Translations under genes and position numbers: made by a program
DNA from: an uncultured delta proteobacterium
GTDB lineage: Bacteria > Myxococcota_A > Polyangia > Polyangiales > Polyangiaceae
Assembly (NCBI GenBank): GCA_963696385.1
Contig: CAVOKF010000007.1
Location: 224,001 to 288,000, forward strand
Direction of reading: 5' to 3'
DNA length: 64,000 nt
Notes under the pieces: generated by a model
What the model was told of the DNA's origin: nothing
The model's database searches: none
The model's input: only the letters and a program-made list of their open reading frames with translations
Shown: piece by piece, positions 5,712-53,156 of the stretch
How the letters are laid out: each line of letters starts with the position of its first letter
Numbering within the stretch: the stretch's first letter is position 1

Positions 5712-8711
5712 ATGACCCCTTCGCAATGGCCCTCCGGTCCGCTCCACCCGGCTCAGCGTCGCTACCTCGCCGAGGACCTCATGCGGCGCCGGCGTTCCGA
5801 CGAACAGCGGCGGTACGCTGCGCCGCAGCGCGCGGCGAAGATCGACGCGAACCCGCACCAGGTCGCAGCCGTCATCTTTGCTCTCGCGCGCGTTCGCGAA
5901 GGGGGCTGCATTTTGGCCGACGAGGTCGGGCTCGGTAAGACGATCGAAGCGGGTCTCGTCATCGCCCAGCTCCTCGCCGAAGGCGCCCGTCGCGTCCTCT
6001 TGGTCGCGCCCAAGCCGCTTCTCGGGCAGTGGGGGCAGGAACTGTTCCAGCTCTTCGACATCCAGGTGCGAGAAGGACAGGCGCGGCCGGGCGGGTTCGA
6101 CGGGGATGGAGTATTTCTGGTGGGCCGCGAGACCGCCGGCAGCGAGAGAGGACGCGACGCTTTACTGGCCGCCGAGCCTTTCGATCTGTGCGTCATCGAC
6201 GAGGCACACGAGATCTTTGCCGGAGTCTACAAGCGCTTCGACAAGTTCGGCGCGTACGTCGACGATGCCCTTCAGGCCCGAACGGCCGGGCGCGTGCGCG
6301 AGACCCTGCTTGCGTCACGCACGCCCGTCCTGCTGCTGACGGCGACCCCGATTCAGAACAGCCTGACGGAACTCTGGGGACTCATTCAATACGTGGATCC
6401 CCTGGGAACCCTGCTCGGAGATCTGCCGACCTTCCGGGCCGTTTTCTGCGGGGCCGACGATCGCCACCTCGCTCCGGGCCAGGAGCAAGAGCTGAGAAGT
6501 CGGATCCGCGGGGTCCTGCAGAGGACCTTGCGCCGTCAGGCGCAGGATTTTCTCGAGAAACCGTTCGTCAGTCGGGAGGCGCGGTTGTTCGAGTACGCGA
6601 TGAGTCCGAGAGAGCGCGGACTCTACGACGACGTGACCCGCTATCTCTTGCAGCCCGGGATCCTGGCGTTCGAGGGGAGCCACCGGCAGCTGCTGCTTCT
6701 TGGGTTTCACCGACGGATGGCGTCGTCCACGCGGGCGCTCGCGGCGAGTCTCGAGCGCGTTGCGGCTCGCCTTCGCCGGATGCTCGCAGGTGACGACACC
6801 CCGAGCGGAGCCGACGAGGATCTTCGCAGTGTGGTCGCCGACCTGGAGGGCGAAGACCTCGACATTCGGGACGAAATCTCGGCGAGCCCGAGCGACGTGG
6901 ACTCGAGAACGCGCGCTCCGGACCCGGAAGCGGTCCGTCAGGAACTGCACCGCGTCGAGAGCTTCATCGAGCGCGCCCAGTCGCTCGAGGGCGAAGACAG
7001 CAAGTTTCGAGCTCTCCTCCAAGCGTTGCACTTCGTGACCGAGCGAGCCGAGAAGGGTCAAGGCACCGCCAAGATCGTCATCTTCACCGAGTCGCTCGTC
7101 ACCCAGGACTACTTGCGCACTCGTCTGATGGAAAGCCGTTTGGTCACCGATGCCGAGATCACCCTGTTCCGGGGCACCAACGACTCCAAACGCGCGCAGG
7201 CCGCGCTCGAGCGATGGCGCCAGGAGGTTCCGCAAGACGAAGGACTCCATCCAAGCCTCGACATCGCGACGCGGCTCGCGCTCGTGCACGAATTCAAGAC
7301 GCGCCCGAAGGGCGTCTTCATCTCGACCGAGGCGGGCGGCAAGGGACTGAACCTGCAGTTCTGCGACACGATCGTGAACTACGATTTGCCGTGGAACCCT
7401 CAGCGCATCGAGCAGCGGATCGGCCGCTGTCACCGCTACGGACAGCAGAGCGGCGTGACGGTCATCAATTTCCTCGCCAAGGACAACGAAGCGCAGCGGC
7501 TCACGTTCGAAATTCTCAGCCAGAAGCTCGAACTGTTCGGCACCGTGCTCGACGCGTCCGACCAGGTGCTGCACCGGTCCGACGCGGCTCGGGGCGAAGT
7601 GCTCGTCAGCGCGCTCGGCGCCGAATTCGAAGCGGAGTTGCGTCGGATCTACGAGCGGGCCCGGTCGCTCGACGAGGTCGCGGCGGAGCTCCGTGCGCTG
7701 CGCGACCGAGTGGCTGAAGAGCGCCGGCGCTTCGAGGAGACGCACGATCGCACCGCCAGCCTCATCGAGGAGCATCTCGACGAGGATCTGCGGCGGGTTT
7801 TCCGTTCGCACAAGCAGGACTTGCCTCGCGCCCTTGCGGATCTCGACCGACATCTGCTGACGGTCGTGCTCGGGTATCTCGACAGCACGTCGATTGCCTA
7901 CGAGCGCGTGAAGCTTGGCGAGGACGATCTGTTGCGCATCGGGCCGGATCCGAGTCTACCGAGCGACTTGTGCGAGGGAATCACCGCGGCCGTCGGCGCT
8001 TCGAAGGAACACGCCTCGCTGCACCTGCGCCACCCCCTGGTCGTCGCCGCCGTGGCCGAGGCGCGTGCATCGACGTCGCCGATGGCGGCGACCGTCGCTT
8101 TGGCCCGCGGCGCGCCGCAGGCTTTGCGCCGGCTTGCGGGCAAACGCGCGCGGCTGCGACTCGTCAAGGTGTCCTTCGATGGCTTCGAGTCCATCGAGCA
8201 GCTCGTGCCGGTCGTCGTACTGGAGGGCGGCGAAAGGATCGGCGTCGCCGAGGGCGACGCGTTGCTGCGAGCGAGCATGCGGGAATCCGTCGTGGCCAAC
8301 CTCTCGATCGAAGAAGACATGGTCGCGGATGCGACCGACGAAACGCTCTTCGATCTTCTCTCGTCGGTCGACGCCGCGGAGCACGGGCGATTCGAAGGCG
8401 CGCAGCGGCAGGCCGAGCGCTTTCTCGACGATCGGCTCCTGGTGCTGCGCAGACGCCGGGGGATTCTCGCGGAACGGCTCAGGGAGGCGAAGCGCAAGCG
8501 AGACGGTGCGACCGGGTCCGAATCGCGGTCGGAGGCAGAAGTCGCTCTCGCGGCCGCCGAGGTCGCGCTCGAAGAGGTCGAGGCCGCGATCGATCGGCTC
8601 GAGCAGCATGACGACGACACGTTTCGAGCGTTCCAAGAACACATCCATCAGCGCCGCTATTCGCAGCCGCGCGTGGACCACCTTTTCGATCTCGATCTGG
8701 TGATCGAATGA
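5712..8711 (+). CDS. SNF2-family (SF2) helicase/ATPase, 999 aa
   Basis: PHQ, LADEVGLGKT, DEAH, TATP, KIVIFTES, STEAGGKGLNLQ, NYDLPWNPQRIEQRIGRCHRYGQ motifs; coiled-coil C-terminus. Confidence 0.95.
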   Translation: MTPSQWPSGPLHPAQRRYLAEDLMRRRRSDEQRRYAAPQRAAKIDANPHQVAAVIFALARVREGGCILADEVGLGKTIEAGLVIAQLLAEGARRVLLVAPKPLLGQWGQELFQLFDIQVREGQARPGGFDGDGVFLVGRETAGSERGRDALLAAEPFDLCVIDEAHEIFAGVYKRFDKFGAYVDDALQARTAGRVRETLLASRTPVLLLTATPIQNSLTELWGLIQYVDPLGTLLGDLPTFRAVFCGADDRHLAPGQEQELRSRIRGVLQRTLRRQAQDFLEKPFVSREARLFEYAMSPRERGLYDDVTRYLLQPGILAFEGSHRQLLLLGFHRRMASSTRALAASLERVAARLRRMLAGDDTPSGADEDLRSVVADLEGEDLDIRDEISASPSDVDSRTRAPDPEAVRQELHRVESFIERAQSLEGEDSKFRALLQALHFVTERAEKGQGTAKIVIFTESLVTQDYLRTRLMESRLVTDAEITLFRGTNDSKRAQAALERWRQEVPQDEGLHPSLDIATRLALVHEFKTRPKGVFISTEAGGKGLNLQFCDTIVNYDLPWNPQRIEQRIGRCHRYGQQSGVTVINFLAKDNEAQRLTFEILSQKLELFGTVLDASDQVLHRSDAARGEVLVSALGAEFEAELRRIYERARSLDEVAAELRALRDRVAEERRRFEETHDRTASLIEEHLDEDLRRVFRSHKQDLPRALADLDRHLLTVVLGYLDSTSIAYERVKLGEDDLLRIGPDPSLPSDLCEGITAAVGASKEHASLHLRHPLVVAAVAEARASTSPMAATVALARGAPQALRRLAGKRARLRLVKVSFDGFESIEQLVPVVVLEGGERIGVAEGDALLRASMRESVVANLSIEEDMVADATDETLFDLLSSVDAAEHGRFEGAQRQAERFLDDRLLVLRRRRGILAERLREAKRKRDGATGSESRSEAEVALAAAEVALEEVEAAIDRLEQHDDDTFRAFQEHIHQRRYSQPRVDHLFDLDLVIE

Positions 8712-9868
8712 CCGGCGGCGGGGAGGACGACATCGTGCTGAAGCTTCTTCACACTGCAGACTGGCATCTGGGCAGGCGGTTCCGCAGCTTCCGGGAGGAC
8801 CAGGCCATCAAGCTTTCGAGGGCCCGGCTCGATGTTCTCGACCGAATTTTCCTTGCGGCCGAGCGCTCCGCGGTCGACGCTGTGCTTTGCGCCGGCGACC
8901 TGTTCGACGAGCCCAACCCGGAGCCGGAGTGGTGGGAGCAGGTCGCGCTGCGGCTGGAAAAGCGCAAGTGGGACCATCGTCCCGTGTTTCTCTTGCCCGG
9001 CAACCACGATCCGCTCGTTGCCGACTCGGTCTGGGCCAAGGAGGCCTTTCGCAAGCGTCTGCCCGAATGGGTCCACATCGTCGACCGGGAGGACTTCGAG
9101 TTTCCGCTTTCGAATCGCGCCGTGCTCTACGCGGTGCCCTGCGCATCCCCGGCTGGGGCGCGCGACCCGACCCAGTCCATCCCCCAACGCGCGCCCGGCG
9201 ACGATCGCATCCGGATCGGCATGGTGCACGGCAGCACGTTCGACGCGAACGACTGGCAGCGCAATTTCCCGATCGCGGCCGATGCGGTGCTGTCCCGCGG
9301 TCTGGACTATCTCGCGATTGGCGACACGCACGGATTTCGGTTCGTTCCGCCCGACCGAAAGCATCCCCCGACGATCTACCCGGGCACCCCGGAGCCAACC
9401 GCTTTCGACGAGAAGGATCCGGGCTCGGTCGCCGTGGTCTTCATCAACCGGCAGCGGCTCGCCACGGTGCGGGCCGAACGCGTCGCGCGCTGGACGTGGG
9501 AGGAGGTATGGGTGCGCTCGCCCGCCGAAATGCGCGCTCTCGGCAAGCGAACGGATTTGGCGGATCGGGTCCTCCGGCTCCGCGTCGAAATGCGGGTGTC
9601 GGCGCCCGAGTACGAGGAGATGGAGCGGCTCTTCGAGGATCTTCAGGGAACGATCGCCAGGAGCGGCACAGTCGGCGTTTTGGACCTCGATCGGCAAGGC
9701 CTCGAGCTCGAGACGGCAGACGTCGAACGCTACTGCGACGACCTGCCGGACGTCCTGCAGTCGACGGTGCGAAGGCTCAAGATCGCGGCCGACGACCCGC
9801 TGCAGCGGTCGGTCGCGCAGCGTGCGCTTTATCACCTCTACCGGGTCTCTCGGAAGAAGGCCTCCTGA
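8708..9868 (+). CDS. Mre11/SbcD-like metallophosphoesterase DNA nuclease
   Basis: HTADWHLG, AGDLFD, PGNHD, VHGS, GDTH and YPGTPEP motifs; ATGA overlap with the helicase stop. Confidence 0.92.
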   Translation: MTGGGEDDIVLKLLHTADWHLGRRFRSFREDQAIKLSRARLDVLDRIFLAAERSAVDAVLCAGDLFDEPNPEPEWWEQVALRLEKRKWDHRPVFLLPGNHDPLVADSVWAKEAFRKRLPEWVHIVDREDFEFPLSNRAVLYAVPCASPAGARDPTQSIPQRAPGDDRIRIGMVHGSTFDANDWQRNFPIAADAVLSRGLDYLAIGDTHGFRFVPPDRKHPPTIYPGTPEPTAFDEKDPGSVAVVFINRQRLATVRAERVARWTWEEVWVRSPAEMRALGKRTDLADRVLRLRVEMRVSAPEYEEMERLFEDLQGTIARSGTVGVLDLDRQGLELETADVERYCDDLPDVLQSTVRRLKIAADDPLQRSVAQRALYHLYRVSRKKAS

Positions 9869-12800
9869 TGCGCTTCATCCGGCTCGTCGTCGAGGCATTT
9901 CGGGCCATCGAGCACGCGGAGGTCCACTTGGGTGCCGGCTTGAACGTGCTCTATGGGCCGAACGATCTCGGCAAGTCGACGCTGGCGGCCGCCCTCCGTG
10001 CGGCGCTGCTCGTGCGCCCGGACGCCGCGGAGGCAACCCAATTCCACTCGTGGTTCACCGACGCGACTCCTCGGGTCGCGCTCTCGTTCGTGACCGGAGA
10101 CGACCGTTACTGGACCGTCCGCAAGGGCTTCGGCGACGGGTCGACCAAGGCCGCCGAGCTTCTGTCCTCGAAGGACGGATCGTCCTTCGTCTTCGAATGC
10201 CGCGGACGGGAGGTCGAGGAGCGCCTTCGCGCTCTGCTCGGGTGGGGAATCCCGGCGCCGGGCGGCAAGGCCGGGCCCCGAGGGGTCCCGATCACGTTCC
10301 TCGAAAACGCGCTTCTCGCGGCACAGACCGACGTCGATTCGATTTTGGCAGCCAGTCTTGCCACGGACCCGGATCCGACCGGCAAGATCCGCTTGTCCAA
10401 GGCTCTCGCCACGCTCGCGCAAGATCCGCTGTTCAAGAAGGTGCTCGACGCCGCTCAGCGCGAGGTGGAGGAGTGCTTCACGCGCACGGGCCAACGCAGC
10501 CGCGCCCAGACATCCCGGTTCACCAAGACGGCGAATGTCATCCATACGCTGCAGGGCGAGCTCGAGGATCGGCAGCGCCGCGTCGCGGACTCGGCCGCCA
10601 TCGAAGAGCGGGTGCGGTTGCTTCGTGAACGACGCGATCGGGCCGAGCTAGGCTTGGCGGAACGTGCCGCCGCCCTTTCGGCCGTGCGCGATCGGCTCAA
10701 GCGTTCGCAGGACCGACAAGAGCTCGCGGCGCGCCTCGAGGCGGCCAAGACTGCGCTCTCGGAGATCGACAGCGAGGCCGCGACGGTCGGCGCCCTCGAC
10801 GCCGAGATCGAAAGACTCGCCAAGCAGGTGAAGTCTCGCGAAGAAGATCGGACGCGTACGACGCGCGACCTGGAGATCGCAACCGCCGCCGTTCGCGACG
10901 CGCAGGAGCGACTCCGGGTGGCGACGAGCGAGGGTGCGGCCCGCCAACGAGAGCTCTTGCGATCGCAACTCGCGGAGCAGGCTGCCGTTGTCGGCGCGGA
11001 TCGGCAAGCCGCCGAGAACCGAAAGGCGAGCCTCCTCGCGGCACTCCAGGCGATCGACGCGGCCCGGCGAGATCGAGATGCGGCCGCCAGCGCGCGCACG
11101 GAGCGGGACCGGTTTCTCGCACGTCTCGAAGCCGCGCGCGCGTCGCTTTTGGCAATCGACCAAGAGCTCGAGCTCGCACGAGCGACGCTCGCGTACGGAC
11201 GGTTGCGTGCCGCCCTGTCGGCGGCGGACGAGGCGGCCAAAGCGAAGAAAGCCGCTGCCAACGGTACTCGCGAGGCCGAGCAGAAAATGGCGCAAGCGGC
11301 GTCCTTCGACGAGCACGCGCGCGCGATGGAGGTCGATCTCGCGGCCCGACAGCGGGTGTTGCCGACCGGGGATCAGGCCACGGCGCTCGCAGCCATGGAA
11401 CGGCAGCTCGAGGTGGCGGAAGCGGCTCTCGGCGGCGGCGTGAGCGTCGTCCTGCGGCCCCGCAAGGCCGTGACCGTGCAGGCCCGCGTCGACGACGAGG
11501 GGGCCGTCGACCCCGTCGACCTCGCCATCGAACGGACGCTCGAGGCCGAGCGCAGCGTGCACCTCTCGGTCGCCGATCTCGTCGACATCGAGGTCACGGC
11601 GGGCGCGGCGGACCAGCGACGAGCCGTCGACAAGCTTCGCCTTCGACGCAAAAAGGAGCTTGTCCCGGTACTCCAACGAGCCGGACTCAACACGTTGCAC
11701 GACGTCGCAACCGCCCTCGGCGCCATGGCGAAAGATCATGCAACGGCCGAGGCAATCCGGAAAAAGGCGGCGGATCTTCGCAACGACGCGGCGAAGCTTC
11801 TCGAGCGTGCCGAGGAGCAGACCGAGCAGGCCGCGAGGCTCTCGAGCCGCGCCGACGGGCTCGAGGCTCGCAAAGCCGCACTGGGCAAGACAGCCCCGGC
11901 GGTTTTGGAGCAGCGGTTGGCCGCGCTCGGGACACACTGGGAGGCGCCGGCCGAGGCGCTGCACGCGAAACGTTCGAACGAGCAACGCACGGCAGCGGCA
12001 GCGACGCGAACGGCCGAGCAGGACGCCGAGCGGGCCGAGTACCAGGTCGCGGAGGCGGATCGGCGAACCGCGGAACGGGTCGCAAGGTCCGAAGCGGCCT
12101 TGGCGACCGCCCAATCCTCGGACCCCGGGCCTTTACTCGCTCGGATCGAGCGGGAGCTCGAATCGTTCGGCAAGCGCGAAGCGGATATCGCGGCGAAGCG
12201 CCAGGCGCTGGAGACGGCTCCGAACGACGATGTCGACCAAGCCGAGCGGGCGATTGCGGCCGCCGAGCACAGTCTGGCTGCGGCGAAGCCGGCGCACGAT
12301 GACGCCGTGCAGGCGGTCGAAACGTCGAGAGCGGAATGCAACACGCGAACGGGGGAGGCCAATCTCCGTCGCCTCCGACTCCATGGCATGGACCGGGCTG
12401 CCGCCGCGGCGCTCGTCGAGCAGCGTACACGCGAGTGGGCGGCGCTGCCGGTCGAGAAGAATGTGTCCGAGGCCGACGTCGTGGCGGCCGAGCAAGACGC
12501 AGCGGCCGCGAACCGGGAACTCGATTCGGCGAAAGAGGAACTCTACAAGAGCGAGGGCGCTCTGACCAAGGTCGGTGGCAACACGGTGCGCGAAGATTTG
12601 GAGCGAATCCAGGAAGCCCTTACCGCCGAATTCGCTCGGCAGCGGGAGATGGAGACCGATGCCGATGCGTGGAAGCTGCTCCGCGACACCCTGCGCGATG
12701 TCGAAGATGACGAGGGCGCCCACCTCGGACGTGCACTCGCAGGACCCGTGTCGAAAAAGTTCGAGGAATTGACGGCGGGCCGTTACCGGGATCTCCGGCT

Positions 12801-13209
12801 CGATGCGGCACTCAAGACGGAGGCGCTGGGTCTGAGTGAGTCGTCTGCGACGGGTGCGGACGTCCTTTCGGCGCTCTCGGTCGGCACACGCCATCAACTC
12901 GCGACGCTCATTCGCCTCACCGTCGCGGCGCAGTTGAAAAGCGCGATCGTGCTCGACGATCACCTGGTCCACACCGACCCGGTGCGACTCGCATGGTTTC
13001 AGGACGTGTTGATGAAGACCGCGCTGAATACGCAGGTCGTGGTTCTCACCTGCCGGCCGGAGGATTACCTCACAACGGATGACCTCGCCGGGGAAGGCAC
13101 CGAACGCGACATCGCCGGAGGTGCGGTGCGGGTCATCGACGGGGCTCGCGTGATCCAGCGCTGGGCGGACGTGTCTTCGCGATCGTCGCGCCCACTGCCC
13201 GTCGAGTGA
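9868..13209 (+). CDS. Rad50/SbcC-like (YhaN-like) ABC ATPase with long coiled coil, about 1113 aa
   Basis: True start MRFIRLVVEAFRAI (TGATG overlap at 9866-9870). Walker A GPNDLGKST, signature LSVGT, Walker B/D-loop IVLDDHLVHTD, VLTC. Confidence 0.92.
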   Translation: MRFIRLVVEAFRAIEHAEVHLGAGLNVLYGPNDLGKSTLAAALRAALLVRPDAAEATQFHSWFTDATPRVALSFVTGDDRYWTVRKGFGDGSTKAAELLSSKDGSSFVFECRGREVEERLRALLGWGIPAPGGKAGPRGVPITFLENALLAAQTDVDSILAASLATDPDPTGKIRLSKALATLAQDPLFKKVLDAAQREVEECFTRTGQRSRAQTSRFTKTANVIHTLQGELEDRQRRVADSAAIEERVRLLRERRDRAELGLAERAAALSAVRDRLKRSQDRQELAARLEAAKTALSEIDSEAATVGALDAEIERLAKQVKSREEDRTRTTRDLEIATAAVRDAQERLRVATSEGAARQRELLRSQLAEQAAVVGADRQAAENRKASLLAALQAIDAARRDRDAAASARTERDRFLARLEAARASLLAIDQELELARATLAYGRLRAALSAADEAAKAKKAAANGTREAEQKMAQAASFDEHARAMEVDLAARQRVLPTGDQATALAAMERQLEVAEAALGGGVSVVLRPRKAVTVQARVDDEGAVDPVDLAIERTLEAERSVHLSVADLVDIEVTAGAADQRRAVDKLRLRRKKELVPVLQRAGLNTLHDVATALGAMAKDHATAEAIRKKAADLRNDAAKLLERAEEQTEQAARLSSRADGLEARKAALGKTAPAVLEQRLAALGTHWEAPAEALHAKRSNEQRTAAAATRTAEQDAERAEYQVAEADRRTAERVARSEAALATAQSSDPGPLLARIERELESFGKREADIAAKRQALETAPNDDVDQAERAIAAAEHSLAAAKPAHDDAVQAVETSRAECNTRTGEANLRRLRLHGMDRAAAAALVEQRTREWAALPVEKNVSEADVVAAEQDAAAANRELDSAKEELYKSEGALTKVGGNTVREDLERIQEALTAEFARQREMETDADAWKLLRDTLRDVEDDEGAHLGRALAGPVSKKFEELTAGRYRDLRLDAALKTEALGLSESSATGADVLSALSVGTRHQLATLIRLTVAAQLKSAIVLDDHLVHTDPVRLAWFQDVLMKTALNTQVVVLTCRPEDYLTTDDLAGEGTERDIAGGAVRVIDGARVIQRWADVSSRSSRPLPVE

Positions 13210-13304: not shown

Positions 13305-14141
13305 ATGGATGAGACCGCCGACCCGATCGCGTATTGGAACGGACCCGCGGGCGAGCGTTGGGCGCGCGAGCAAGAAGCGATCGATCGAGCTTTTGCGGCG
13401 TTCAGCGCCAAGCTCTTCGATCGCGCGACGCTGCGCCCGGGCGCTCGTGTCCTCGACGTGGGCTGCGGATGCGGGACGACTACGCTCGCCGCGGCCGACG
13501 CGGTGGGACCGGGGGGCGCGGTCGTGGGAATCGACGTGTCGACGCCGATGGTGGCACGAGCGCGCGAACGCTCGACCGGGCGGCCGAACGTTTCGTACGT
13601 CTTGGCCGACGCAGCCGAGCATGGATTCGAGACTCCGTTCGACGCCATCGTGTCGCGTTTCGGAGTGATGTTCTTCCGGCGCCCGGTACCGGCCTTCCGG
13701 CGGATGCGCGAAGCGCTGCGATCGGGCGGCACCCTGGCGTTCGTGTGCTGGCGCGCGGCGAACGAAAACGAATGGGTTCGCGTTGCCCGGGACTCCGTCG
13801 ACTTGCTTCTTCCTGCCGAACCCGCCGAATCGGCGGATGAGCCGGGGCCATTCGCGTTCGCAGACTCTGGCCGCGTGGCGGCAATCCTCGACGAAGCGTC
13901 ATTTACGAACGTCGCAGTCGTTGCCTTCGACGCCGATGTCGTCCTTTCGCAGCAGGGGCTTGGTGAAGCCGCGCGCTTCGCCATGACTACGGGGCCGACG
14001 GCGCGCCGGTTGCGGGACGCCGACGATGACACGAAGGCCCGGGTCCGCGTGGCGCTCGAGGCGCGATTGCGGCCTTTCGTCAGGGGCGAGCGCATCGCCC
14101 TGCGCGGCTCGGTCTGGGTGGTGAGCGCCACGAGAAGCTGA
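13305..14141 (+). CDS. class I SAM-dependent methyltransferase
   Basis: YWNGPAGERW N-terminus, VLDVGCGCG, SRFGVMFF, PGPFAFAD. Confidence 0.9.
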   Translation: MDETADPIAYWNGPAGERWAREQEAIDRAFAAFSAKLFDRATLRPGARVLDVGCGCGTTTLAAADAVGPGGAVVGIDVSTPMVARARERSTGRPNVSYVLADAAEHGFETPFDAIVSRFGVMFFRRPVPAFRRMREALRSGGTLAFVCWRAANENEWVRVARDSVDLLLPAEPAESADEPGPFAFADSGRVAAILDEASFTNVAVVAFDADVVLSQQGLGEAARFAMTTGPTARRLRDADDDTKARVRVALEARLRPFVRGERIALRGSVWVVSATRS

Positions 14142-18352: not shown

Positions 18353-18646
18353 TCAGCGAGGGAGGGGCTTGTCGTGGTGGTTGTGGTCACGCCCGTCGAC
18401 GACGTTCTGCTCGGCGAGTCGATATTGGCGGATATGCCTGCGTAAAGCGCGCATGGCATTGAGGAGGTCGCGAGTGGGGGGATGATTGGCGCCGCCGCGT
18501 GTCGACGAGGAGGGGTCGGGGCCGATGGCGAGAAAGCGGCGAGCCGCGATGAGTGCAGCGTCGAGCACGAAGAGCGGACCGAGTTCGGGCGCCAAGACGA
18601 TGTCCCACTCGGAGGGCGCAACGAGCCGCTGGCGCGGCGGCGTCAC
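18353..18646 (-). CDS. IS-borne hypothetical protein downstream of istB, 97 aa
   Basis: GTG start overlaps the istB stop (GTGA); helical-looking APELGPLFVLDAALIAARRFL...LRRHIRQYR. Confidence 0.55.
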   Translation of the reverse strand: MTPPRQRLVAPSEWDIVLAPELGPLFVLDAALIAARRFLAIGPDPSSSTRGGANHPPTRDLLNAMRALRRHIRQYRLAEQNVVDGRDHNHHDKPLPR

Positions 18647-19428
18647 ACGCGCCTCCGGGCGGAGGCGCCTCGCGAGCGGGGCCTGGGTTGCGGAGGCGGT
18701 GGGGAGTTGCCCGGCTTTTGCCGGTAGGAGTCGGCATCGATGTCGATGGTGTGCAGATGCTGGGTGAAGCGATCGATGAGAGCGACGAGGCAGGCGGCGC
18801 CGGGGAATACGCCCCCCCATTCCTTGAAGGCCAAGTTGGTCGAGATGATGGTGGAGGCTCGTTCATGGCGCCGGCTGATGATCTGGAAGAAGAGGTCGAC
18901 GGCGCGCTTGTCTACGGGCACATATCCAAGTTCGTCGCATACGAGAAGATCGACATTGGTATAGCGCTTCATGCGTCGCTCGACGGCGGGCAGCGACTCC
19001 TGTTTCAAGAGATCGGCGAGCGCCGAAACGACCGGGGTAAAGCAGACGGTCATGCCGGCGCTGAGCGCGGCGAGGCATACGTTCTGCGCAAGCATGGTCT
19101 TACCCACACCGCTTGGGCCGCGAAAAAGGACGTTCTCGCGGCGCTCCACGAAGCCCAAGCCGAGGACATTCTCGCATAGGGCGCGGTCGATCTTGCGCGG
19201 ATGGCTCCAGTCGAAACGGTCCATCGTCGTGTGCGCCCCCACCGTCGCCATCTTGGTGCGGGTGGCGAGATTGCGTGCTTCACGCTGCCGGCGCTCCATT
19301 TCGACCAGCAGCTCGACGACCTGCACGTGCGAGAGGCGGTTGGCGGTCGCGTGCGACAGCAGTGCCTCGAGCTGCTCGCGCGACGCGCAGAAGCCGATGG
19401 CCCGGAGCTCGTCGACGACGTCGCTCAC
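18643..19428 (-). CDS. istB: IS21 helper ATPase IstB
   Basis: FDW, Walker A GPSGVGKT, LLVCDELGY, FFQIISRRHE, STN, W, LIDRF, SYR. Confidence 0.95.
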   Translation of the reverse strand: MSDVVDELRAIGFCASREQLEALLSHATANRLSHVQVVELLVEMERRQREARNLATRTKMATVGAHTTMDRFDWSHPRKIDRALCENVLGLGFVERRENVLFRGPSGVGKTMLAQNVCLAALSAGMTVCFTPVVSALADLLKQESLPAVERRMKRYTNVDLLVCDELGYVPVDKRAVDLFFQIISRRHERASTIISTNLAFKEWGGVFPGAACLVALIDRFTQHLHTIDIDADSYRQKPGNSPPPPQPRPRSRGASARRRV

Positions 19429-20906
19429 GACTCACCCCGCTTTCGGTCGTAGGAACCGAGGTCGTGGGGCACCACGATGGCGTCGACGACGTGCGCGCCG
19501 AGCACGATATCCACCGGCATGGGCCGGTCGGTTCGCTGCCGCTCTTGCTCGCAGAGAAGGGCCAGCGCGCCGATGTCGTGCGTGCCGCGCTCGCCCATGA
19601 CGCGCACGGCGTAACCGAAGATCTCCAGCCCGTAGAGTGTGAAGAGCTTGCGCGCATGCCCGGTCATGAAGTTGATGTTTCGTCCCTGCTCGACCCAGCG
19701 TTCGTAAAGCACCGAGAGCTCGGGCACGGCGCCGAGCAGCTGGTCGCGTATCGTGATGGCCTCGGCTCGTGGCCGCCCCTCGCAGAGGGCGCGGCGATGC
19801 GCGGGGTCGTCGATGCGCTGACCGCGTCCCCACGAGCGTCGGTGGCGCGCCACCTCTTTCTCCCCATCGAGAAGCCGCACGTGATCGTCGTCCGCCACGA
19901 GCGTCAGCGTCGCGCTCGCGTACTTCGGCGGCGCCGAGTAGCGGTTGGTCCCGAGCCGTACGCTCGCCGTCTTGTCGACGGCGACAGGCAACACCAGGTC
20001 CGCCGTCGGCATCGGATTGGGCAGCGGCATCAGGCGCTCCTTCTCCTCGGCGAAGACCTCGCCCACGCTGCGGCTGGCGAGGGTTGGGTGGCGACGCGTC
20101 ATCACGACCGATTCGATGTGGCGCCGCAGGCCGAGGTTTCCTATCTCCAGACTCGGGATCGAACGGCCCGCGAAGAATCCTTCTTTGAGCTCGCGTATGG
20201 CTCTTTCGACTCCGCCCTTGTCTTCGGGCGTCCGCACGCGCGCGAGCACTGGTTTGACGCGAAGCTGTCCGGCGAGCTCGATGATCCCGGAGTGAAGCCG
20301 CGCGGCGCGACCATGGCGCTCGATCACGACGATCTTGGGGTTGTCGAAGAGAAGCTGCCGTGGCACGCCACCGAAGAAGCTCAGCGCGCGCAGGATCGAG
20401 CGCCGGAGCGATTCCGCCGTCATATCGAGCACCAACTCCGCGTACCGCATTCGCGAATACGCCAAAAGCATCACGAAGACCCAGAGCGCCCGCATCCCTC
20501 CCATGACGGAGAGCTGCCCCACGTGACCCCAGTCCACTTGCCCTTGCTCGCCCGGCAGGCGCTCGCAGACCAGGTACGCCTTGCTCGCCGCGCGCGGACG
20601 GATGCCTTTGACGAAGCGCTCGACGAGCTTTGCGCTGCCCCGAAACCCGCGCTCGGCGATCATCGTGCGCAGCCGCGTCGCGCGCAGCCGTGGATACCTC
20701 TCGATCTGCTCGAGGATGAAGCCCTTGTACGCGTCGAGCTTGCTCGGCCGAGGCTCGCGCGCGGGCTGTCCAGTGGCGTCCTGGGCGAGCACGCGCGTGA
20801 CGACGTCGTGGTGCACCCCCAGCTCGGCGGCCACCGTGCCTTCGGGCCACTTCTCGGCCTGCACGAGCCGAAGGATCTCGCTCTCGCACTCTTTGCTGAC
20901 TGTCAT
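19425..20906 (-). CDS. istA: IS21 DDE transposase IstA
   Basis: N-terminal HTH, SKLDAYK, PGEQGQVDWG, LFDNPK, KGGVER, NRYSAP. Confidence 0.95.
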   Translation of the reverse strand: MTVSKECESEILRLVQAEKWPEGTVAAELGVHHDVVTRVLAQDATGQPAREPRPSKLDAYKGFILEQIERYPRLRATRLRTMIAERGFRGSAKLVERFVKGIRPRAASKAYLVCERLPGEQGQVDWGHVGQLSVMGGMRALWVFVMLLAYSRMRYAELVLDMTAESLRRSILRALSFFGGVPRQLLFDNPKIVVIERHGRAARLHSGIIELAGQLRVKPVLARVRTPEDKGGVERAIRELKEGFFAGRSIPSLEIGNLGLRRHIESVVMTRRHPTLASRSVGEVFAEEKERLMPLPNPMPTADLVLPVAVDKTASVRLGTNRYSAPPKYASATLTLVADDDHVRLLDGEKEVARHRRSWGRGQRIDDPAHRRALCEGRPRAEAITIRDQLLGAVPELSVLYERWVEQGRNINFMTGHARKLFTLYGLEIFGYAVRVMGERGTHDIGALALLCEQERQRTDRPMPVDIVLGAHVVDAIVVPHDLGSYDRKRGES

Positions 20907-44294: not shown

Positions 44295-44897
44295 CTACGC
44301 ATCGGTGTCCCACTTCGCGATCCTGGCGATTTCCCTATGTCGGAAGCAGTCCACGACATGGTCATTGACCATGCCGACGGCCTGCATGTGCGCGTAGATG
44401 ATGGTCGACCCCACGAAGGTGAAGCCGCGGCTCTTCAGATCCTTGCTCATGGCGTCGGACTGGGCGCTGCGAGCGGGGATCTCGCCCGCGGTTTGCCGGC
44501 GATTGTGGACCGGGCGGCCGTCGACGAAGCGCCACTGGTACGCGTCGAAGCTGCCAAACTCCGCTTGCACATCGAGAAACGCCTTGGCGTTCTTGATCGC
44601 CGATTCAATCTTCGCTCGATTGCGCACGATTCCAGCATCGGCCAGCAACGCCCCGACTTTGCGCGTGTCGTAGCGGGCGACTTTCCGCGGGTCGAACTGG
44701 TCGAACGCGCGCCGGTACGCATCCCTCTTGCGCAGGATCGTTATCCAGCTGAGCCCAGCCTGGGCACCTTCAAGGACGAGAAACTCGAAAAGGGCGCGAT
44801 CGTCGCGTACGGGAACGCCCCACTCTTCGTCGTGGTAGGCGACGTACAACGGGTCGGTGCCTGACCAGGTGCAGCGTTTCTTCACGAGTGCAGTCAC
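44295..44897 (-). CDS. tag: DNA-3-methyladenine glycosylase I
   Basis: RCTW..YHDEEWG..LEGAQAGLSW..IVRNRAKI..FVGSTIIYAHMQAVGMVNDH..C. Confidence 0.97.
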   Translation of the reverse strand: MTALVKKRCTWSGTDPLYVAYHDEEWGVPVRDDRALFEFLVLEGAQAGLSWITILRKRDAYRRAFDQFDPRKVARYDTRKVGALLADAGIVRNRAKIESAIKNAKAFLDVQAEFGSFDAYQWRFVDGRPVHNRRQTAGEIPARSAQSDAMSKDLKSRGFTFVGSTIIYAHMQAVGMVNDHVVDCFRHREIARIAKWDTDA

Positions 44898-45242
44898 CGT
44901 TCACCCCAACGAGCCGCGCCCTGGTCCAAGAGAGACCGTCTGCGGCGTTCGGTCTCGCCGACCCCACCTCTAGCGGCTCTTCTTCTTCGCGGCCAGTGCG
45001 GCGGCGGCACCGCCCCGCAGCACGCAAGCGGCGCGCCCGCGGGCGACGCATGCCTCGAGCCAGCTGTCGAGAGGCCCGGCGCCGAAGGTGCGTCGACCTT
45101 TTGGGGCCGAGCGCACTGCCCCTCTATCGATTGACAGCAGGAGGGCTCCGGGCCAAAAGGCGACATCGGTAGCACCGCCATCCTGCGCTCGCGCCGACCC
45201 CGAAAACCGAGTGCTCGTCAGAGATCGAGCAGGAGCTGTCCT

Positions 45243-46523
45243 ATGTCGACTCATCTTCGCCTCGCTGCAGCGTGCCGCACGGTCGCTCGGGGCATGCCCG
45301 TCGTCGTTATCGCGGCAATCGGCCCCGGTTTTGAACGCTCGTCCGTCGCCGGCGAGGCCTTGACCTCCGACCCGGCGGTGGACGCCGGCGCGATGATCAC
45401 GATCAGCGGCACGGTGACCGATCCTATTGACGGCCCGCAGGCCGGCATCACGATCACGCTGAGCGGCAGCGCCCAGGCTCAAGTCGTGACCAATTTTTCC
45501 GGCAGCTTCTCGTTCAGCGTCAAACCCGGCGGCTCGTATTCGCTCACGGCGGCCGGAACCAACAACTACTTCCAGCCGCCCTTTCAAACCTGCCTCACGG
45601 TGACCCCGAGCATCGTCAATCTCAACAACCTGAAGTCGAGCACCACCCTTCAGTTCGTCGGTTCCGGGACGGACCCGGTCACCAACTGTTCGCCCTCCGC
45701 GTCGACGGGCGCCATCTCGGGCTCGCTCACGCTTCAGGGTCGGGTCACCTCCGACGGGCTTCCCGTCGCTGGCGCCCGCGTTTACTTGAACGGCAGCGCC
45801 CAGGGCTACCGCACGTCCGACGAGACGGGGGCCTACACCTTCGCGGTGAATCCGGGTTCGTACTCGGTCGACGTCTCGGGCGCCTGTGCGTCGTTCACGC
45901 CCGACGTTTCGAATCTCAATAACCTCAAGGCGAACACGACGCAGAATTTCAAGGGCACGAGCTGCCCGCCCGCACCGCTCACGTACTGCCCTGCCTTCGA
46001 CGCGCTTTTCGGTCTCTCGGAGCCCGCGAGCTGCGACACGGTGTCCACGGACGATTGCGCGTTCGACCGGCTCGACTCCGCGGGTGGCTGGGCCGGCGAC
46101 GTGGCCAACGACTTTGACTTCACGACGGAGGCGACCGACTGCCGCCTCGGCGCGTGGAACAACCCGCCCATCGTCAACGACTTCACGGACGTGGGCTTCT
46201 TCCAGCAATCGCTCGCGCTGAACCTTTTCACCCTGCAACTGTTCGGGTGCGCGGAGGCCGGCAACCTCGACGGCCCACTCTCGTTGCAAGTCTCGCTCAT
46301 CCCGCCGGATCTCATTCGCGCGGGTCTGACGTTCACGACGGCCGACATCTCCGCCATGGAGGACGACTACGTCGCGGCGATCAACCAGGCGCTCGCGAGC
46401 AACGGGTCGCCCGCCCTCACGGCGACGCAGACAGCCGCCTTCCGTGCCCAGCTCGATTACGCGGCAAGCAAGGTTCCGGGCGTCATCTCGTCGTCGAAGC
46501 TTTCGTACAGCACGTGCCCGTAG
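45243..46523 (+). CDS. exported protein with two carboxypeptidase-regulatory-like beta-sandwich repeats and a helical C-terminal domain
   Basis: TISGTVTD..AGITITLSG and TLQGRVTS..AGARVYLNG repeats, each followed by NLNNLK. Confidence 0.7.
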   Translation: MSTHLRLAAACRTVARGMPVVVIAAIGPGFERSSVAGEALTSDPAVDAGAMITISGTVTDPIDGPQAGITITLSGSAQAQVVTNFSGSFSFSVKPGGSYSLTAAGTNNYFQPPFQTCLTVTPSIVNLNNLKSSTTLQFVGSGTDPVTNCSPSASTGAISGSLTLQGRVTSDGLPVAGARVYLNGSAQGYRTSDETGAYTFAVNPGSYSVDVSGACASFTPDVSNLNNLKANTTQNFKGTSCPPAPLTYCPAFDALFGLSEPASCDTVSTDDCAFDRLDSAGGWAGDVANDFDFTTEATDCRLGAWNNPPIVNDFTDVGFFQQSLALNLFTLQLFGCAEAGNLDGPLSLQVSLIPPDLIRAGLTFTTADISAMEDDYVAAINQALASNGSPALTATQTAAFRAQLDYAASKVPGVISSSKLSYSTCP

Positions 46524-46574
46524 CACGCACCCGTCCAGGTTCTCTGGTGGGATCGCCTTTAACGGGGCGCTGCA

Positions 46575-47046
46575 CTAAGCAAGCAGCAGCGACAGCCGTC
46601 CGCCGGCGTAGCCCGCGAGCGTCAGCTCGAGATCCAGGCGCATCCTCGGCTGGATGAGGACGTTGCCGACGGCGGGGGGCAATGCGGTCGATGGAGGCGA
46701 CAGAATCCCGCAAGCGCACATGCGTCCCTTCGAAAATGCCGGCCAGGATGTTCAACACCTCGCGAAGGTTGTCGAAGATCTCGTCGGGAAAGCTGCCCTT
46801 GCTCGCGGCGTCCGCGGCGACCGTGACTGGAATCAGCGCGAGGGCCGCGCCCATCGAGGCCGAGAGGGCCAGGTCGCAAATGCACACCGCCACGACCGCG
46901 CCCGAATCGTCGACGTAGGTTCCCGTGCACGCCTGGACGGAAGCGGGCATGGGCGCGCCCTTCTTCGGACCGACGGCCTTGCCGAAGAGATCCCGCAGGA
47001 CGCGGGCGACCGCGCTTGGAGCAGGGAGGGCAAGCCGTGCGGACAT
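46575..47046 (-). CDS. chemotaxis-cluster hypothetical protein (CheX/CheC-like), frameshifted near 46704
   Basis: DNLREVLNI (ExxN). The plausible end RLDLELTLAGYAGGRLSLLLA* (stop 46575-46577) is reached by removing one base at AGAATC 46702-46707. Confidence 0.7.
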
Positions 47047-47054
47047 CGGGGCAC

Positions 47055-47420
47055 TCAGCGCTTTAGGATGGGCCCCAGGACCTGTCGAAAGCTTTCGGAA
47101 TCGAAGGGCTTGGCAATGAGCGCTAGAGCTCCAGCCGCCTTCGCGCGCTCGCGCATCTCGGACGTCCCTTCGGACGTAATGAAGACGAAAGGGACCTTGT
47201 TCCCTTCGCGGGTGAGCGCGGACAAAAGATCGAACCCACTCATCTCCGGCATATTCCAGTCGGATAGCACGAGGTCCGGCGTCTTCACGCGAATCGCGGC
47301 GAGCGCCTCGGCCCCGTTGCAGGCTTCCTGGATGTCCTCGTCGGCGAAGTCCGCCTGCCGCAGCGTTCTCCGTACGATGAGCCGCATGGCCTTGGAGTCG
47401 TCTACCACCAGTATCTTCAC
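47055..47420 (-). CDS. cheY: CheY-like response regulator
   Basis: ILVVDDS, LSDWNMP, ITSE, AKPF. Confidence 0.88.
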   Translation of the reverse strand: MKILVVDDSKAMRLIVRRTLRQADFADEDIQEACNGAEALAAIRVKTPDLVLSDWNMPEMSGFDLLSALTREGNKVPFVFITSEGTSEMRERAKAAGALALIAKPFDSESFRQVLGPILKR

Positions 47421-47470
47421 GGTATGGCCCCCCCGTTTCGACGTTTCTGGGTGAGAGCGCCGACGTCACC

Positions 47471-47929
47471 CTACACGCGCGCCTCGCGCGAAAGCAGGGT
47501 CACGACGAACTCCTCTCCGTGCGAAGCAAACCAGACGGTTTGTACGGCCACGGCGTCGCAGATGGTTAGCGCGGCCCGGGCACTCTCGACGACGACGGGC
47601 AGCGAGAGCTGGGTGGGGCCCGGAAGAAGAGCCTTGATGTTCCCGCCCACCATGTTCGCGAGCTCGCCGAGCGCGTCGCGGACGTCATCCGACGAGGTGT
47701 CGGCGGGGCTGGTTTCGAACATGCTGGCGGCCGCCGCCCGGGCCAAGCCGACGGGACATTGGATCATCACGGCTCCCTCCCATGCGCCGCTGATCTGGAC
47801 GCACCCGGTGACGACCGTCGCAGGAAGTCGCGGTTCAGGCATCCCGGACCTTTCCTCGGCGTCCGTTTGAAGGACGTTGGTCCACACGGCACTCGTAATG
47901 TCCCGGATGTCTTGCTCTTCAACGCTCAT
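47471..47929 (-). CDS. cheX: chemotaxis phosphatase CheX
   Basis: ISGAWEG, DALGELANMVGGNIK, LSLP. Confidence 0.88.
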   Translation of the reverse strand: MSVEEQDIRDITSAVWTNVLQTDAEERSGMPEPRLPATVVTGCVQISGAWEGAVMIQCPVGLARAAAASMFETSPADTSSDDVRDALGELANMVGGNIKALLPGPTQLSLPVVVESARAALTICDAVAVQTVWFASHGEEFVVTLLSREARV

Positions 47930-48777
47930 TTTCCTGCCTCTGCGCCGCCAGGTCGGTAGTAAACGGCCTTGTCGACTTGAACGCGTTTGAACGAATCATC
48001 CACCTTGAGAGTGGTTTCGGCCCCCCCGAGAAACAGGTAGCCGTCGGGAGCGAGAACCTGCCGGACTCGTGACAGAACACGTTGTTTGGTCGGCACGTCG
48101 AAGTAAATGAGAACGTTGCGGAGGAAAACGACGTCGAAGACAGGCATGGCCGGCCAAGGGTCGATCAGGTTCATCTGACGGACCTCGAACAGGTCTCGAA
48201 GGCTCTGCTTGATCTGCCAATGGACTCCTGTTCGATCGAAGTACTTGACGAGCAGCGGCGCCGGAAGGCCGCGGTTGACCTCAAGCTGGCTGAATACTCC
48301 CTTTTGGGCGCGAGTGACCATCGCGGACGCCAGGTCGGTTCCGATGATCCGCACGTCCCAGGGCGTGAGGTCCGGGAAGTGCTCCCGGAGCACCATCGCG
48401 ATGGTGTAGGCTTCCTGCCCCATGGAGCAGGCCGCGCTCCAGATCCGGATTCGGCGCGATCCCGCGCGCGTTTTGCGCAATTTGGGGAGGATCTCCGTCC
48501 GTAGCGCATCGAACGGGTGCAGATCGCGAAAAAAGCTCGTCTCGTTGGTCGTCATGGCTTCGACGACTTTGGAATGCAAACCGTTCGCCGGTTGCGCGCG
48601 GAGCCGGCCCACCATCTCGTCGATCGAGGCGAACCCCTCCGCTCGCGCAAGGGGCCCGAGCCGCGACTCGATCAGGTACTCTTTGCCCGCTTCGATGACG
48701 ATGGCGGATCGCCGGTAGACGAGCTCGCGCACATAGGCGAGGTCCGACGGGCTTACCACGAGGAGGTCCTTGGCCAT
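47926..48777 (-). CDS. cheR: chemotaxis methyltransferase CheR
   Basis: TTNETSFFRD, IWSAACSMGQEAY, FLRNVLIYFD, FLGGAET. Confidence 0.95.
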   Translation of the reverse strand: MAKDLLVVSPSDLAYVRELVYRRSAIVIEAGKEYLIESRLGPLARAEGFASIDEMVGRLRAQPANGLHSKVVEAMTTNETSFFRDLHPFDALRTEILPKLRKTRAGSRRIRIWSAACSMGQEAYTIAMVLREHFPDLTPWDVRIIGTDLASAMVTRAQKGVFSQLEVNRGLPAPLLVKYFDRTGVHWQIKQSLRDLFEVRQMNLIDPWPAMPVFDVVFLRNVLIYFDVPTKQRVLSRVRQVLAPDGYLFLGGAETTLKVDDSFKRVQVDKAVYYRPGGAEAGK

Positions 48778-49865
48778 CGCAACTCGTCCGGGGGCGACCT
48801 CCGGGTGCCCCCGATCCGCCGCCACACCTCGTGGGCGACCGCGTCGAGGGGAACGACCGCGTCTGCAAGGCCTGCGTTTGCGATGTAACCCGGCATGCCC
48901 CACACGACGGACGTGGCCTCGTCCTGGACGACGACCTGCCCGCCGGCTTCGCGCACGTGCTCGCAGCCTCGAAGCCCGTCCTGCCCCATCCCCGTGAGCA
49001 CGACCGCCAATGTGTTCGCACCGTAGCACTCGACCGCCGAGCGAAAGAGCACGTCGACCGCCGGCCGGCACGAGTTCTCGTGCGGAGTTTTGAGCAGCTT
49101 GAGGCGTCGTGCAAAGCCTTCGCGATACACCACCATGTGGTAGTCGCCCGGCGCTATCCACAGATCGCCCGGCGCCAAGGTCTCACCGCCGCGGGCCTCT
49201 TTCACGCCGAGACTTGTGTGGGCGCGCAAGCGGTCCGCCAGCAGACGCGTGAAGACCGGAGGCATGTGCTGGACGATCACCACGGGGACGCTCGGATTCG
49301 GGGGGAACGACTCGAGCAGGGTCGTCAGCGCTTTCGGGCCGCCGGTGGAACAACCAATCATGAGTACTTCGACATGCGCCGCGGACGAGCGAGGCTTCGT
49401 CGCGACACCGCGCGCAGGCGCCGCGCTAGGCGTCGCGGTCGAGCGAAGCGAGCCGAGCGCAGAGGCTCCGAAGAGGAGAACCTTGCTGAGAAGCTGTTCT
49501 CGCAGCTGATGGCTAGCGGCCGCGATGCTCAATCCGCTGGGCTTCGTGACGTAGTCGCTGGCCCCCAGCGTGAGCGCCGTGAGTGTCGCCGCCGCCGCGC
49601 GCTCCGTGACAGCGCTGAACATGATGACGGGCAGCCGAGGATGCGTCTTGCGGATCGCAGCCAACGTCTCAAGGCCGTCCATCTCCGGCATCTCCACATC
49701 CAGGGTCACGACGTCGGGATTCACCTGTCCGATCTTGGCGAGCGCGATCTTGCCGTTCGCCGCCGTGCCTACGACTTCGCAGCTCGGATCGGAGCCGAGG
49801 ACGTCCGCGACGAGACGGCGAACGACGACGGAGTCGTCGACGATGAGAACGCGGATCTTAGGCAT
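48753..49865 (-). CDS. cheB: chemotaxis methylesterase CheB
   Basis: Receiver domain plus GCSTGGP, VQHMP, RPAVDVLF, LTGMGQDG. Confidence 0.95.
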   Translation of the reverse strand: MPKIRVLIVDDSVVVRRLVADVLGSDPSCEVVGTAANGKIALAKIGQVNPDVVTLDVEMPEMDGLETLAAIRKTHPRLPVIMFSAVTERAAAATLTALTLGASDYVTKPSGLSIAAASHQLREQLLSKVLLFGASALGSLRSTATPSAAPARGVATKPRSSAAHVEVLMIGCSTGGPKALTTLLESFPPNPSVPVVIVQHMPPVFTRLLADRLRAHTSLGVKEARGGETLAPGDLWIAPGDYHMVVYREGFARRLKLLKTPHENSCRPAVDVLFRSAVECYGANTLAVVLTGMGQDGLRGCEHVREAGGQVVVQDEATSVVWGMPGYIANAGLADAVVPLDAVAHEVWRRIGGTRRSPPDELRWPRTSSW

Positions 49866-53151: not shown

Positions 53152-53156
53152 CGCCC

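Follow-up and report, generated by a model that had tools for sequence, protein, structure and literature searches.

A horizontally transferred three-gene cassette joining a putative SbcE/SbcF-class nuclease to a RapA/DrmD-like SNF2 motor, a candidate system of defence against invading DNA

The locus

Analysis of a 64,000-nucleotide stretch of DNA from an uncultured member of the Polyangiaceae (contig CAVOKF010000007.1, positions 224,001 to 288,000; hereafter the window) centred on three consecutive genes, the trio, encoding an SNF2-family helicase, an Mre11/SbcD-type nuclease and an ATPase resembling Rad50 and the structural maintenance of chromosomes (SMC) proteins. The genes and the features recognised within them are as follows.

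5712-8711, plus strand: gene 1, SNF2-family helicase, 999 amino acids
5928-5942, plus strand: helicase Walker A motif GLGKT, residues 73-77; G73, L74, G75, K76 and T77 invariant in 60 homologues
6198-6209, plus strand: helicase motif II DEAH, residues 163-166; D163, E164, A165 and H166 invariant in 60 homologues
7779-8708, plus strand: helicase C-terminal domain, residues ~690-999, comprising a long helix, a beta sandwich, a helical hairpin and a terminal strand
8708-9868, plus strand: gene 2, Mre11/SbcD-type nuclease, 386 amino acids
8999-9010, plus strand: nuclease motif III GNHD, residues 98-101; among 82 sequences, distant pairs included, G98 and D101 do not vary and N99 and H100 are conserved to at least 90%
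9868-13209, plus strand: gene 3, SMC/Rad50-like ATPase, 1113 amino acids
9955-9978, plus strand: ATPase Walker A motif GPNDLGKS, residues 30-37; G30, N32, G35, K36 and S37 invariant in 76 sequences
11362-11682, plus strand: ATPase central (apex) domain, residues ~499-605, in place of a zinc hook
12877-12963, plus strand: ATP-binding cassette (ABC) signature LSVGTRHQ (residues 1004-1010) and Walker B motif VLDD (1028-1031) of the ATPase

The helicase and nuclease genes meet in a stop/start overlap (gaATGAcc, with ATGA at 8708-8711), as do the nuclease and ATPase genes (ccTGATGcg, with TGATG at 9866-9870). A first-pass annotation of this DNA had described three plus-strand genes chained by such overlaps, with recognisable catalytic motifs and unrelated genes on either side. 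The sequence at both junctions agrees with the first of these points, Pfam assignments on both flanks agree with the last, and all of the motifs are kept, being invariant or nearly so across homologues of the three proteins.

Synteny and horizontal transfer of the trio

Related loci were collected by a scan in which each species was represented by one genome and the best 80 of 580 confirmed relatives were kept. Nineteen of these loci have a nuclease sharing 49-62% identity with the gene 2 product, and in all 19 a helicase approximately 50% identical to that of gene 1 lies directly upstream, while an ATPase gene lies downstream of the nuclease gene in 18 of the 19. With start codons picked by script, the nuclease/ATPase junction is overlapping or no more than 22 nucleotides long in 17 of 18 loci. 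The 19 loci are spread over Myxococcota, Acidobacteriota, Gammaproteobacteria, Rokubacteria and Chthoniobacterales. This arrangement is far beyond chance, and with the helicase upstream in every case and the ATPase downstream in all but one, the earlier suggestion that the trio is a real syntenic unit is upheld. Three of the 19 copies appear decayed, L013 by frameshifts in the helicase and ATPase genes, L024 by a frameshift in the ATPase gene, and L025 by a nuclease that ends after residue 153 and the loss of the ATPase gene; all three derive from metagenome bins, in which assembly error is possible. Two apparent nuclease-ATPase fusions (P0317, 1510 amino acids; P0129, 1338 amino acids), in which the last 60-115 nuclease residues are replaced by unrelated sequence before the ATPase begins, were set aside and are read as frameshift read-throughs.

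Across the phylum the trio is found in 7 of 301 genomes, that of the window included (E-value of 1e-40 or better), and in none of 23 genomes of the window's own family, a same-genus genome also being without it. Within the sister family, 11 of 31 genomes carry the nuclease (E-value of 1e-70 or better), and nine of these 11 carry the helicase beside it on the same contig. Such uneven distribution is accompanied by evidence of exchange between lineages. In a tree of 44 nucleases (19 from trios, 12 from two-gene nuclease/ATPase pairs and 13 canonical SbcD proteins picked from more than 45, with the truncated L025 left out), the trio nucleases form one clade nested within the clade of pair nucleases, each with a Shimodaira-Hasegawa-like approximate likelihood ratio of 100, and stand apart from canonical SbcD. 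Phyla are mixed inside the trio clade: one copy from Chthoniobacterales has its sister in Bryobacteraceae, and one from Vicinamibacterales falls among those of Gammaproteobacteria. The identity matrices of the three proteins, calculated from 12 full-length cassettes (66 pairs), correlate with r = 0.88-0.91, a value reached in none of 2000 permutations, and the Chthoniobacterales and Bryobacteraceae cassettes are 85, 85 and 76% identical in their three proteins. As the identity patterns of the three genes are congruent, the cassette moves as a unit; the trio has been transferred horizontally, across phyla of soil bacteria, as a unit. The genome counts and the nuclease tree thus confirm what had been proposed of its uneven distribution and its mobility.

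These data bear directly on the notion that the helicase and the nuclease/ATPase pair are mere neighbours with separate functions and no joint machine. It is true that the pair is widespread without any helicase, and that a prediction of the complex between the nuclease and helicase residues 640-999, run on separate alignments, gave no support for contact, a result that counts as evidence neither way. Against this, however, stand synteny at 19 of 19 loci over at least five phyla, the stop/start overlaps between the genes and the congruent divergence of all three. Moreover, within the sister family, helicase orthologues lie only beside the nuclease, save for one at the end of a contig, from a genome 71% complete, and one pseudogene fragment with two stop codons. 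Mere adjacency is accordingly judged the most improbable of the explanations considered here.

A RapA/DrmD-like SNF2 motor

The helicase carries the Pfam domains SNF2-rel_dom (8.6e-21) and Helicase_C (1.9e-16), and its domains are ordered as an N-terminal conserved helix region, two RecA lobes and a RapA-like C-terminal domain. Every one of its SNF2 motor motifs is invariant among 60 homologues, as are H774, L776, A779 and A780 of the C-terminal domain. An AlphaFold2 model reached a mean predicted local distance difference test (pLDDT) score of 82 and a predicted template modelling score of 0.79, with pLDDT values of 85-94 over the C-terminal 300 residues. When this model was used as a Foldseek query, the top four matches were entries for RapA, the SNF2 ATPase that recycles RNA polymerase in E. 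coli. Alignment to a RapA chain (8t0l_F, VIA-align) covers 739 residues (Z 20.6, root-mean-square deviation 4.7), pairing residues 9-999 of the model with residues 121-966 of the chain; among the targets shown, E. coli RapA alone aligns from end to end, and the C-terminal domain lies within the range aligned to the C-terminal part of RapA. The motor itself (residues ~30-620) aligns to INO80, ISWI and CSB at Z 23-24.

At the level of sequence families, the top-scoring annotated relatives are defence helicases, all far under their cut-offs: DrmD (392 bits), BrxHI (194), HmaA (161) and DpdE (157). The best of these scores is to DISARM_DrmD_b (NF038318, cut-off 950 bits); a second DrmD model (NF038317) gives 211 bits against a cut-off of 610, with a match spanning residues 154-986. 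Taken together, the sequence and the model indicate that gene 1 encodes a predicted bacterial SNF2 double-stranded DNA translocase of RapA/DrmD-like type, lacking a counterpart of the first 120 residues of RapA. The first-pass description of gene 1 as an SNF2-type helicase therefore stands on the Pfam domains and motifs, and is refined by the structural alignment, which makes the protein RapA-like over its whole length.

Resemblance to RapA raises the question of whether the trio might resolve conflicts with transcription or R-loops, the motor displacing stalled RNA polymerase in the manner of RapA while the nuclease attached to it processes the DNA structures that result. The near full-length alignment and the Foldseek ranking would favour such a role. 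Yet the alignment begins only at RapA residue 121, and it is the N-terminal part of RapA that contacts RNA polymerase; the score against the RapA equivalog (NF003426) is 125.9 bits where 576 are required, identity to RapA is 17-19%, and the neighbourhoods offer no pointer to transcription. A transcription-linked function is thus considered quite unlikely.

A hook-less nuclease and ATPase core

The gene 2 product matches Pfam Metallophos (1.1e-13), and its best sequence matches in the PDB are Thermotoga Mre11 and E. coli SbcD. Sixteen close homologues share H15, D18, H20, D64, N99, H100, H174, D206 and H208 without exception, and in a wider set of 82 sequences, the distant pairs among them, most of the metal-binding residues reach at least 90% conservation. 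The SbcD model TIGR00619 is matched over residues 11-102 only, at 63.1 bits against a cut-off of 77.65, and a Pfam search found no SbcD_C domain (PF12320); the protein carries a conserved C-terminal domain of ~120 amino acids. Queries of the ESM Atlas returned generic metallophosphoesterase clusters and unnamed clusters, and nothing else. Judged by its motifs, gene 2 encodes a putative Mre11/SbcD-type metallophosphoesterase nuclease that is YhaO/SbcF-like.

The ATPase matches Pfam AAA_23 (6e-09) and SMC_N. Its Walker A motif, Q-loop and ABC signature are invariant, and among the 76 sequences S1004, G1006, D1030 and D1031 do not vary, so that Walker B reads LDD, with Asp where the catalytic Glu is expected; the H-loop position is Arg or His inside a TC[RH]P motif. 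The AlphaFold2 model (pLDDT 81) consists of a split head and a coiled coil of ~280 + 390 amino acids forming two long helical arms, with a small beta domain (strands at 525-577) at the apex between them. It is in this central region that P499 is at least 90% conserved and D542 invariant (76 sequences), and no CxxC zinc hook occurs in the ATPase sequence. Foldseek matches of the model were the heads of Smc5/6, MukB, condensin, JetC and Rad50.

These characters recall Bacillus subtilis SbcE (YhaN), which is described as an SbcC-like protein without CxxC and with a unique central domain bearing a conserved proline (PMC2811018). As set out in the same description, SbcE interacts with the SbcD-like YhaO (SbcF) in two-hybrid assays and has a role in break repair and competence (PMC2811018). 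The distant relatives of the trio nuclease are likewise encoded in two-gene pairs without a helicase, whose ATPases carry AAA_23/AAA_27. Among ten pair ATPases, Walker B is DD in nine, CxxC is absent from all ten and P398 is invariant in their alignment, compared with DE and CPVC in both canonical SbcC proteins. When the trio ATPase profile was aligned with the pair ATPases using hhalign, the match had a probability of 100% (E-value of 7.9e-55, 848 columns). Several ATPase homologues are labelled 'uncharacterized protein YhaN' by the Joint Genome Institute, and AAA_27 (PF13514) is present on the pair ATPases and, in precomputed lists, on several ATPase homologues, while the window's ATPase has no match to it at an E-value of 0.01.

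From these sequence features, and likened to the Bacillus proteins by their published description, the nuclease and ATPase are assigned to a hook-less SbcE/SbcF (YhaN/YhaO) class. What had first been called an Mre11/Rad50-like pair retains the Mre11 motifs and the ABC head of that description, but is not a generic Mre11-Rad50: the missing CxxC, the central-domain proline and the DD Walker B place it in the hook-less class. The trio and SbcE/SbcF share an SbcD-like nuclease gene lying directly before that of an SMC-like ATPase and, as far as the description of SbcE extends, an ATPase with a conserved central proline and no CxxC hook. They differ in that SbcEF is a two-gene unit (with yhaM) lacking an SNF2 helicase, and is reported to be conserved in Gram-positive bacteria and to act in break repair and competence. 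The trio is, in this comparison, an SbcEF-class nuclease to which a co-inherited SNF2 motor has been added.

A further arrangement of the core occurs in the sister family, where two genomes without the helicase (G333 and G342) carry a sister form. That of G333, the one inspected (L096 8488-13519, on G333:C11), comprises a nuclease 42% identical to that of the trio, a 936-amino-acid ATPase and a 374-amino-acid protein of unknown type whose gene overlaps by 4 nucleotides, and it adjoins genes for a divergent 892-amino-acid SIR2-domain protein and a kinase-nSTAND1 protein. This sister form suggests that the third partner of the nuclease/ATPase core is exchangeable.

Other SbcD-like systems and the case for repair

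In the window's genome, which is 96% complete, no SbcD-like system was found besides the trio, and no match to SbcC_Walker_B (PF13558) occurs anywhere in it. A two-gene pair consisting of a 420-amino-acid Metallophos protein and an AAA_27 ATPase (for example L094 4103-9182, on G320:C13) is present in 18 of 25 genomes of the window's family (E-value of 1e-30 or better) and was not found in the window's own. Among the nine helicase-bearing genomes of the sister family, four have no other TIGR00619 match, two have canonical SbcD and three have weak extra matches only; canonical SbcD is also present in two of five other trio genomes elsewhere in the phylum. Of 13 trio genomes with the helicase that were checked, four (G150, G049, G325 and G336) have canonical SbcD as well, and this coexistence shows that the trio and SbcCD are not simply redundant. 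The first-pass annotation had left room for the trio being the sole, vertically inherited SbcCD of its genome; it is indeed the sole SbcD-like system there, while vertical inheritance is contradicted by the horizontal transfer described above.

By analogy, the trio could be a portable break-repair module, carrying out SbcEF-type processing of ends and hairpins on the cell's own chromosome while the SNF2 remodeller clears nucleoid proteins or stalled polymerases, and replacing SbcCD or a resident SbcEF pair. In eukaryotes, Fun30/SMARCAD1 or INO80 aid MRX-dependent resection in a comparable manner. Such a module would account for the pattern just described, in which the window's genome has no other SbcD-like gene, SbcC_Walker_B match or family pair, and would agree with the strong purifying selection evident in a nuclease that is 65-87% identical among 120 metagenome proteins listed. 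In the Acidiferrales locus L010, moreover, genes for non-homologous end-joining lie 1.6-6 kb downstream of the trio:

L010, 15991-20627: Ku and full LigD

The characterised relative SbcEF is, in the passages describing it, active in double-strand-break repair (PMC2811018). On the other side, transfer across phyla, conjugation and defence genes adjoining several loci, coexistence with canonical SbcD, the defence helicases that are nearest to gene 1 among annotated families and the decay of 3 of 19 loci all argue against a housekeeping repair role, which is regarded as the strongest competing explanation, though doubtful.

Neighbours of related loci

Genes within 10 kb of the trio at 16 other loci were compared with PADLOC, 89 of 123 flanking open reading frames (ORFs) being scanned. 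Specific defence-type neighbours occur at six of the 16:

L009, 1402-6012: PDC-S37, a giant AAA_11/AAA_12 helicase with an MTES_1575 restriction-endonuclease-like domain
L023, 1538-6700: PDC-S37, a giant AAA_11/AAA_12 helicase with an MTES_1575 domain
L014: Ppl-like and Schlafen-like genes
L017: PDC-M38A
L022, 14128-19766, directly downstream of the trio: Hma-like pair of SNF2 helicase HmaA (1e-68) and DNA methylase HmaB (2e-29)
L024: HEC-05/GmrSD

The PDC-S37 matches at L009 and L023 (4e-54 and 3.5e-68) come from two different trio subclades, and PDC-S37 may be a recurrent companion of the trio. L009 also lies beside genes for a TrwC relaxase, a type IV secretion system coupling protein and a VirB11-like ATPase.

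Comparison with named systems

The proposal that the trio matches no named system is borne out in PADLOC-DB 2.0, where the nuclease has no match, the ATPase has P-loop matches only and the helicase falls under the DrmD cut-off (392 versus 950 bits). Similarly, a full-text search of the literature, whose scope excluded subscription journals and supplements, found no description of a cassette combining SNF2, SbcD/Mre11-like and SMC-like proteins.

Several known systems nevertheless share components with it. As in SbcCD and Mre11-Rad50, the nuclease is of calcineurin type with Mre11 motifs and the ABC head is split by a long coiled coil, the best solved structures being Thermotoga Mre11 and Rad50 and E. 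coli SbcD. Canonical SbcCD differs in both proteins, the trio nuclease scoring below the SbcD cut-off without an SbcD_C domain, and the trio ATPase having no SbcC_Walker_B match, no zinc hook, DD rather than DE in Walker B and Arg or His within TC[RH]P at the H-loop. Among annotated families the helicase scores best against DrmD, the SNF2 helicase of class 1 DISARM, with a match that reaches the C-terminal domain; the scores, however, lie far under the equivalog cut-offs of 950 and 610 bits, and drmA, drmB, drmC or a DNA methylase were neither found by Pfam in the window's flanks nor conserved across 13 related loci. RapA resembles the helicase over its whole length, C-terminal domain included, with the differences given above.

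Similar logic is found in Lamassu LmuB and Wadjet JetC, where a long-armed ABC ATPase serving as DNA sensor is combined with a nuclease, and in Zorya ZorD, where an SNF2 motor is recruited to foreign DNA; JetC and ZorD are both among the structural matches of the trio proteins. LmuB models match weakly, however, the best at 24 bits on ATPase residues 14-98 (P-loop level), and the nuclease has no LmuA or LmuC match. The trio also lacks the kleisin, KITE, Toprim or LmuA partner of SMC-based defence systems. As for Zorya, the helicase scores 60.9 bits against ZorD (NF041790), far from the cut-off of 1500, and neither ZorABC nor membrane-motor genes lie in the window's flanks.

Proposed function

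Taken together, these data suggest that the trio is a self-contained mobile cassette in which an SbcE/SbcF-class nuclease is combined with a RapA/DrmD-like SNF2 translocase, most likely for defence against invading DNA, a reading to which a probability of roughly 0.48 is assigned. A role in defence, taken by itself, stands at about even odds. The points counted in its favour are strict synteny, cross-phylum co-transfer, the relatedness of the motor to defence helicases, defence neighbours, uneven distribution, decayed copies, intact active sites and the occurrence of the sister form beside SIR2 and kinase-nSTAND1 genes. That the proteins form a complex, on what substrate they act, what each ATPase does and that the function is defence are matters that we infer from these observations, and the following scheme is offered in that spirit.

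The ATPase heads, together with the central beta domain, would form a long-armed ring or clamp that scans DNA, and Asp in place of Glu in Walker B would be expected to slow hydrolysis and prolong the ATP-engaged, DNA-clamped state. An encounter of the clamp with an abnormal structure, or with an end that is free or blocked by protein, might trigger cutting by the bound Mre11-type nuclease, while the SNF2 motor could either feed duplex DNA to the nuclease, to be destroyed processively, or strip shielding proteins from the substrate. Self would be distinguished by the circular chromosome, which offers no free ends, rather than by methylation; the cassette is not accompanied by any conserved DNA methylase. 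It is conceivable, at somewhat less than even odds, that the trio represents, as its founding example, an unnamed immune family built on an SbcEF-type end-sensing nuclease core with exchangeable partners, namely the SNF2 motor or the 374-amino-acid protein, which would destroy linear or end-protected invading DNA without a methylation mark. Exchange of partners around a common core would be a further likeness to Lamassu.

Several observations weigh against defence. SbcEF, the characterised relative, functions in repair; no other SbcD-like system was found in the window's genome, and the sole-copy pattern, seen there and in four of nine sister-family genomes, fits a housekeeping machine that substitutes for other repair systems. 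The cassette is also common in the sister family. The window's own trio has sugar hydrolases and methyltransferases for neighbours rather than defence genes, and its GC content of 0.64-0.70 is that of its flanks. Elsewhere, eight of the 16 other loci have no PADLOC-type neighbour and two have weak or generic ones only, while the six with specific neighbours are to be read with the background rate of such neighbours uncontrolled. Lastly, no close copy was found on viral contigs, where the best matches, among the 80 loci kept, are 26-47% identical over partial stretches, or in phage records, which gave three partial matches only, and all 97 plasmid records are at or below 32.5% identity, the two inspected being helicase-less pairs. 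The trio therefore has no direct link to phage conflict.

Should defence prove to be its role, Mre11-Rad50, the oldest DNA-break machine, would have been recruited into bacterial immunity together with a motor of the chromatin-remodeller type, and that immunity would gain a methylation-independent, end-sensing system present in Myxococcota, Acidobacteriota, Gammaproteobacteria, Verrucomicrobiota and Rokubacteria. If its role were repair, bacteria would possess an equivalent of the end resection assisted by remodellers that is so far known from eukaryotes, and the trio would exemplify the displacement of a repair module through horizontal transfer. In both cases it provides a tractable handle on the poorly understood SbcEF class, with its DD Walker B, its lack of a hook and its central domain.

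Flanking genes and minor features

By Pfam, the left flank of the trio carries GH28, an LCM-like methyltransferase and an ORF without family, and the right flank a class I S-adenosylmethionine (SAM) methyltransferase, a GH43/F5-8 protein and an IS21 istA/istB pair.

13305-14141, plus strand: class I SAM methyltransferase, directly after the trio and not conserved beside other trios
18643-20906, minus strand: IS21-type element 5.4 kb downstream of the trio, with istB (IstB_IS21, 5e-53) and istA (rve and Mu-transpos_C_2)

The methyltransferase ORF was considered as a fourth coupled gene and rejected, being present in none of the 80 related loci, from which it follows that the cassette ends at 13209. 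It can be read from a GTG at 13206 that overlaps the gene 3 stop codon; the methyltransferase domain, however, begins at approximately residue 66, and the ATG at 13305 is preceded by a stretch of lower GC. Translation probably starts at this ATG rather than at the GTG, and the gene is probably not translationally coupled to the trio. Its PADLOC match to mad2 (2.4e-25) concerns the generic SAM-binding region only.

Comparison with the same-genus genome G225 gave a left-flank match of 27 nucleotides only and right-flank matches of 68-72% on other contigs, and no insertion boundaries of the trio could be drawn from this empty-site comparison. Because the two genomes are not collinear here, the region may be a variable island. 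A scan for promoters and terminators returned no promoter-like sites and eight terminator-like sites, compared with 7.5 expected. A 488-amino-acid antisense ORF with high third-position GC (10648-12114, minus strand) lies inside the coiled-coil region of the ATPase gene; it was rejected as a gene and is regarded as an artefact of GC-rich coding sequence rich in Ala, Arg and Glu, which a simple filter on third-position GC favoured over the real gene. Farther along the window, and unrelated to the trio, are a 3-methyladenine glycosylase gene (44295-44897) and, within 44295-55529, a chemotaxis cluster encoding CheY-like, CheX, CheB, methyl-accepting chemotaxis (MCP) and CheA-CheW proteins.

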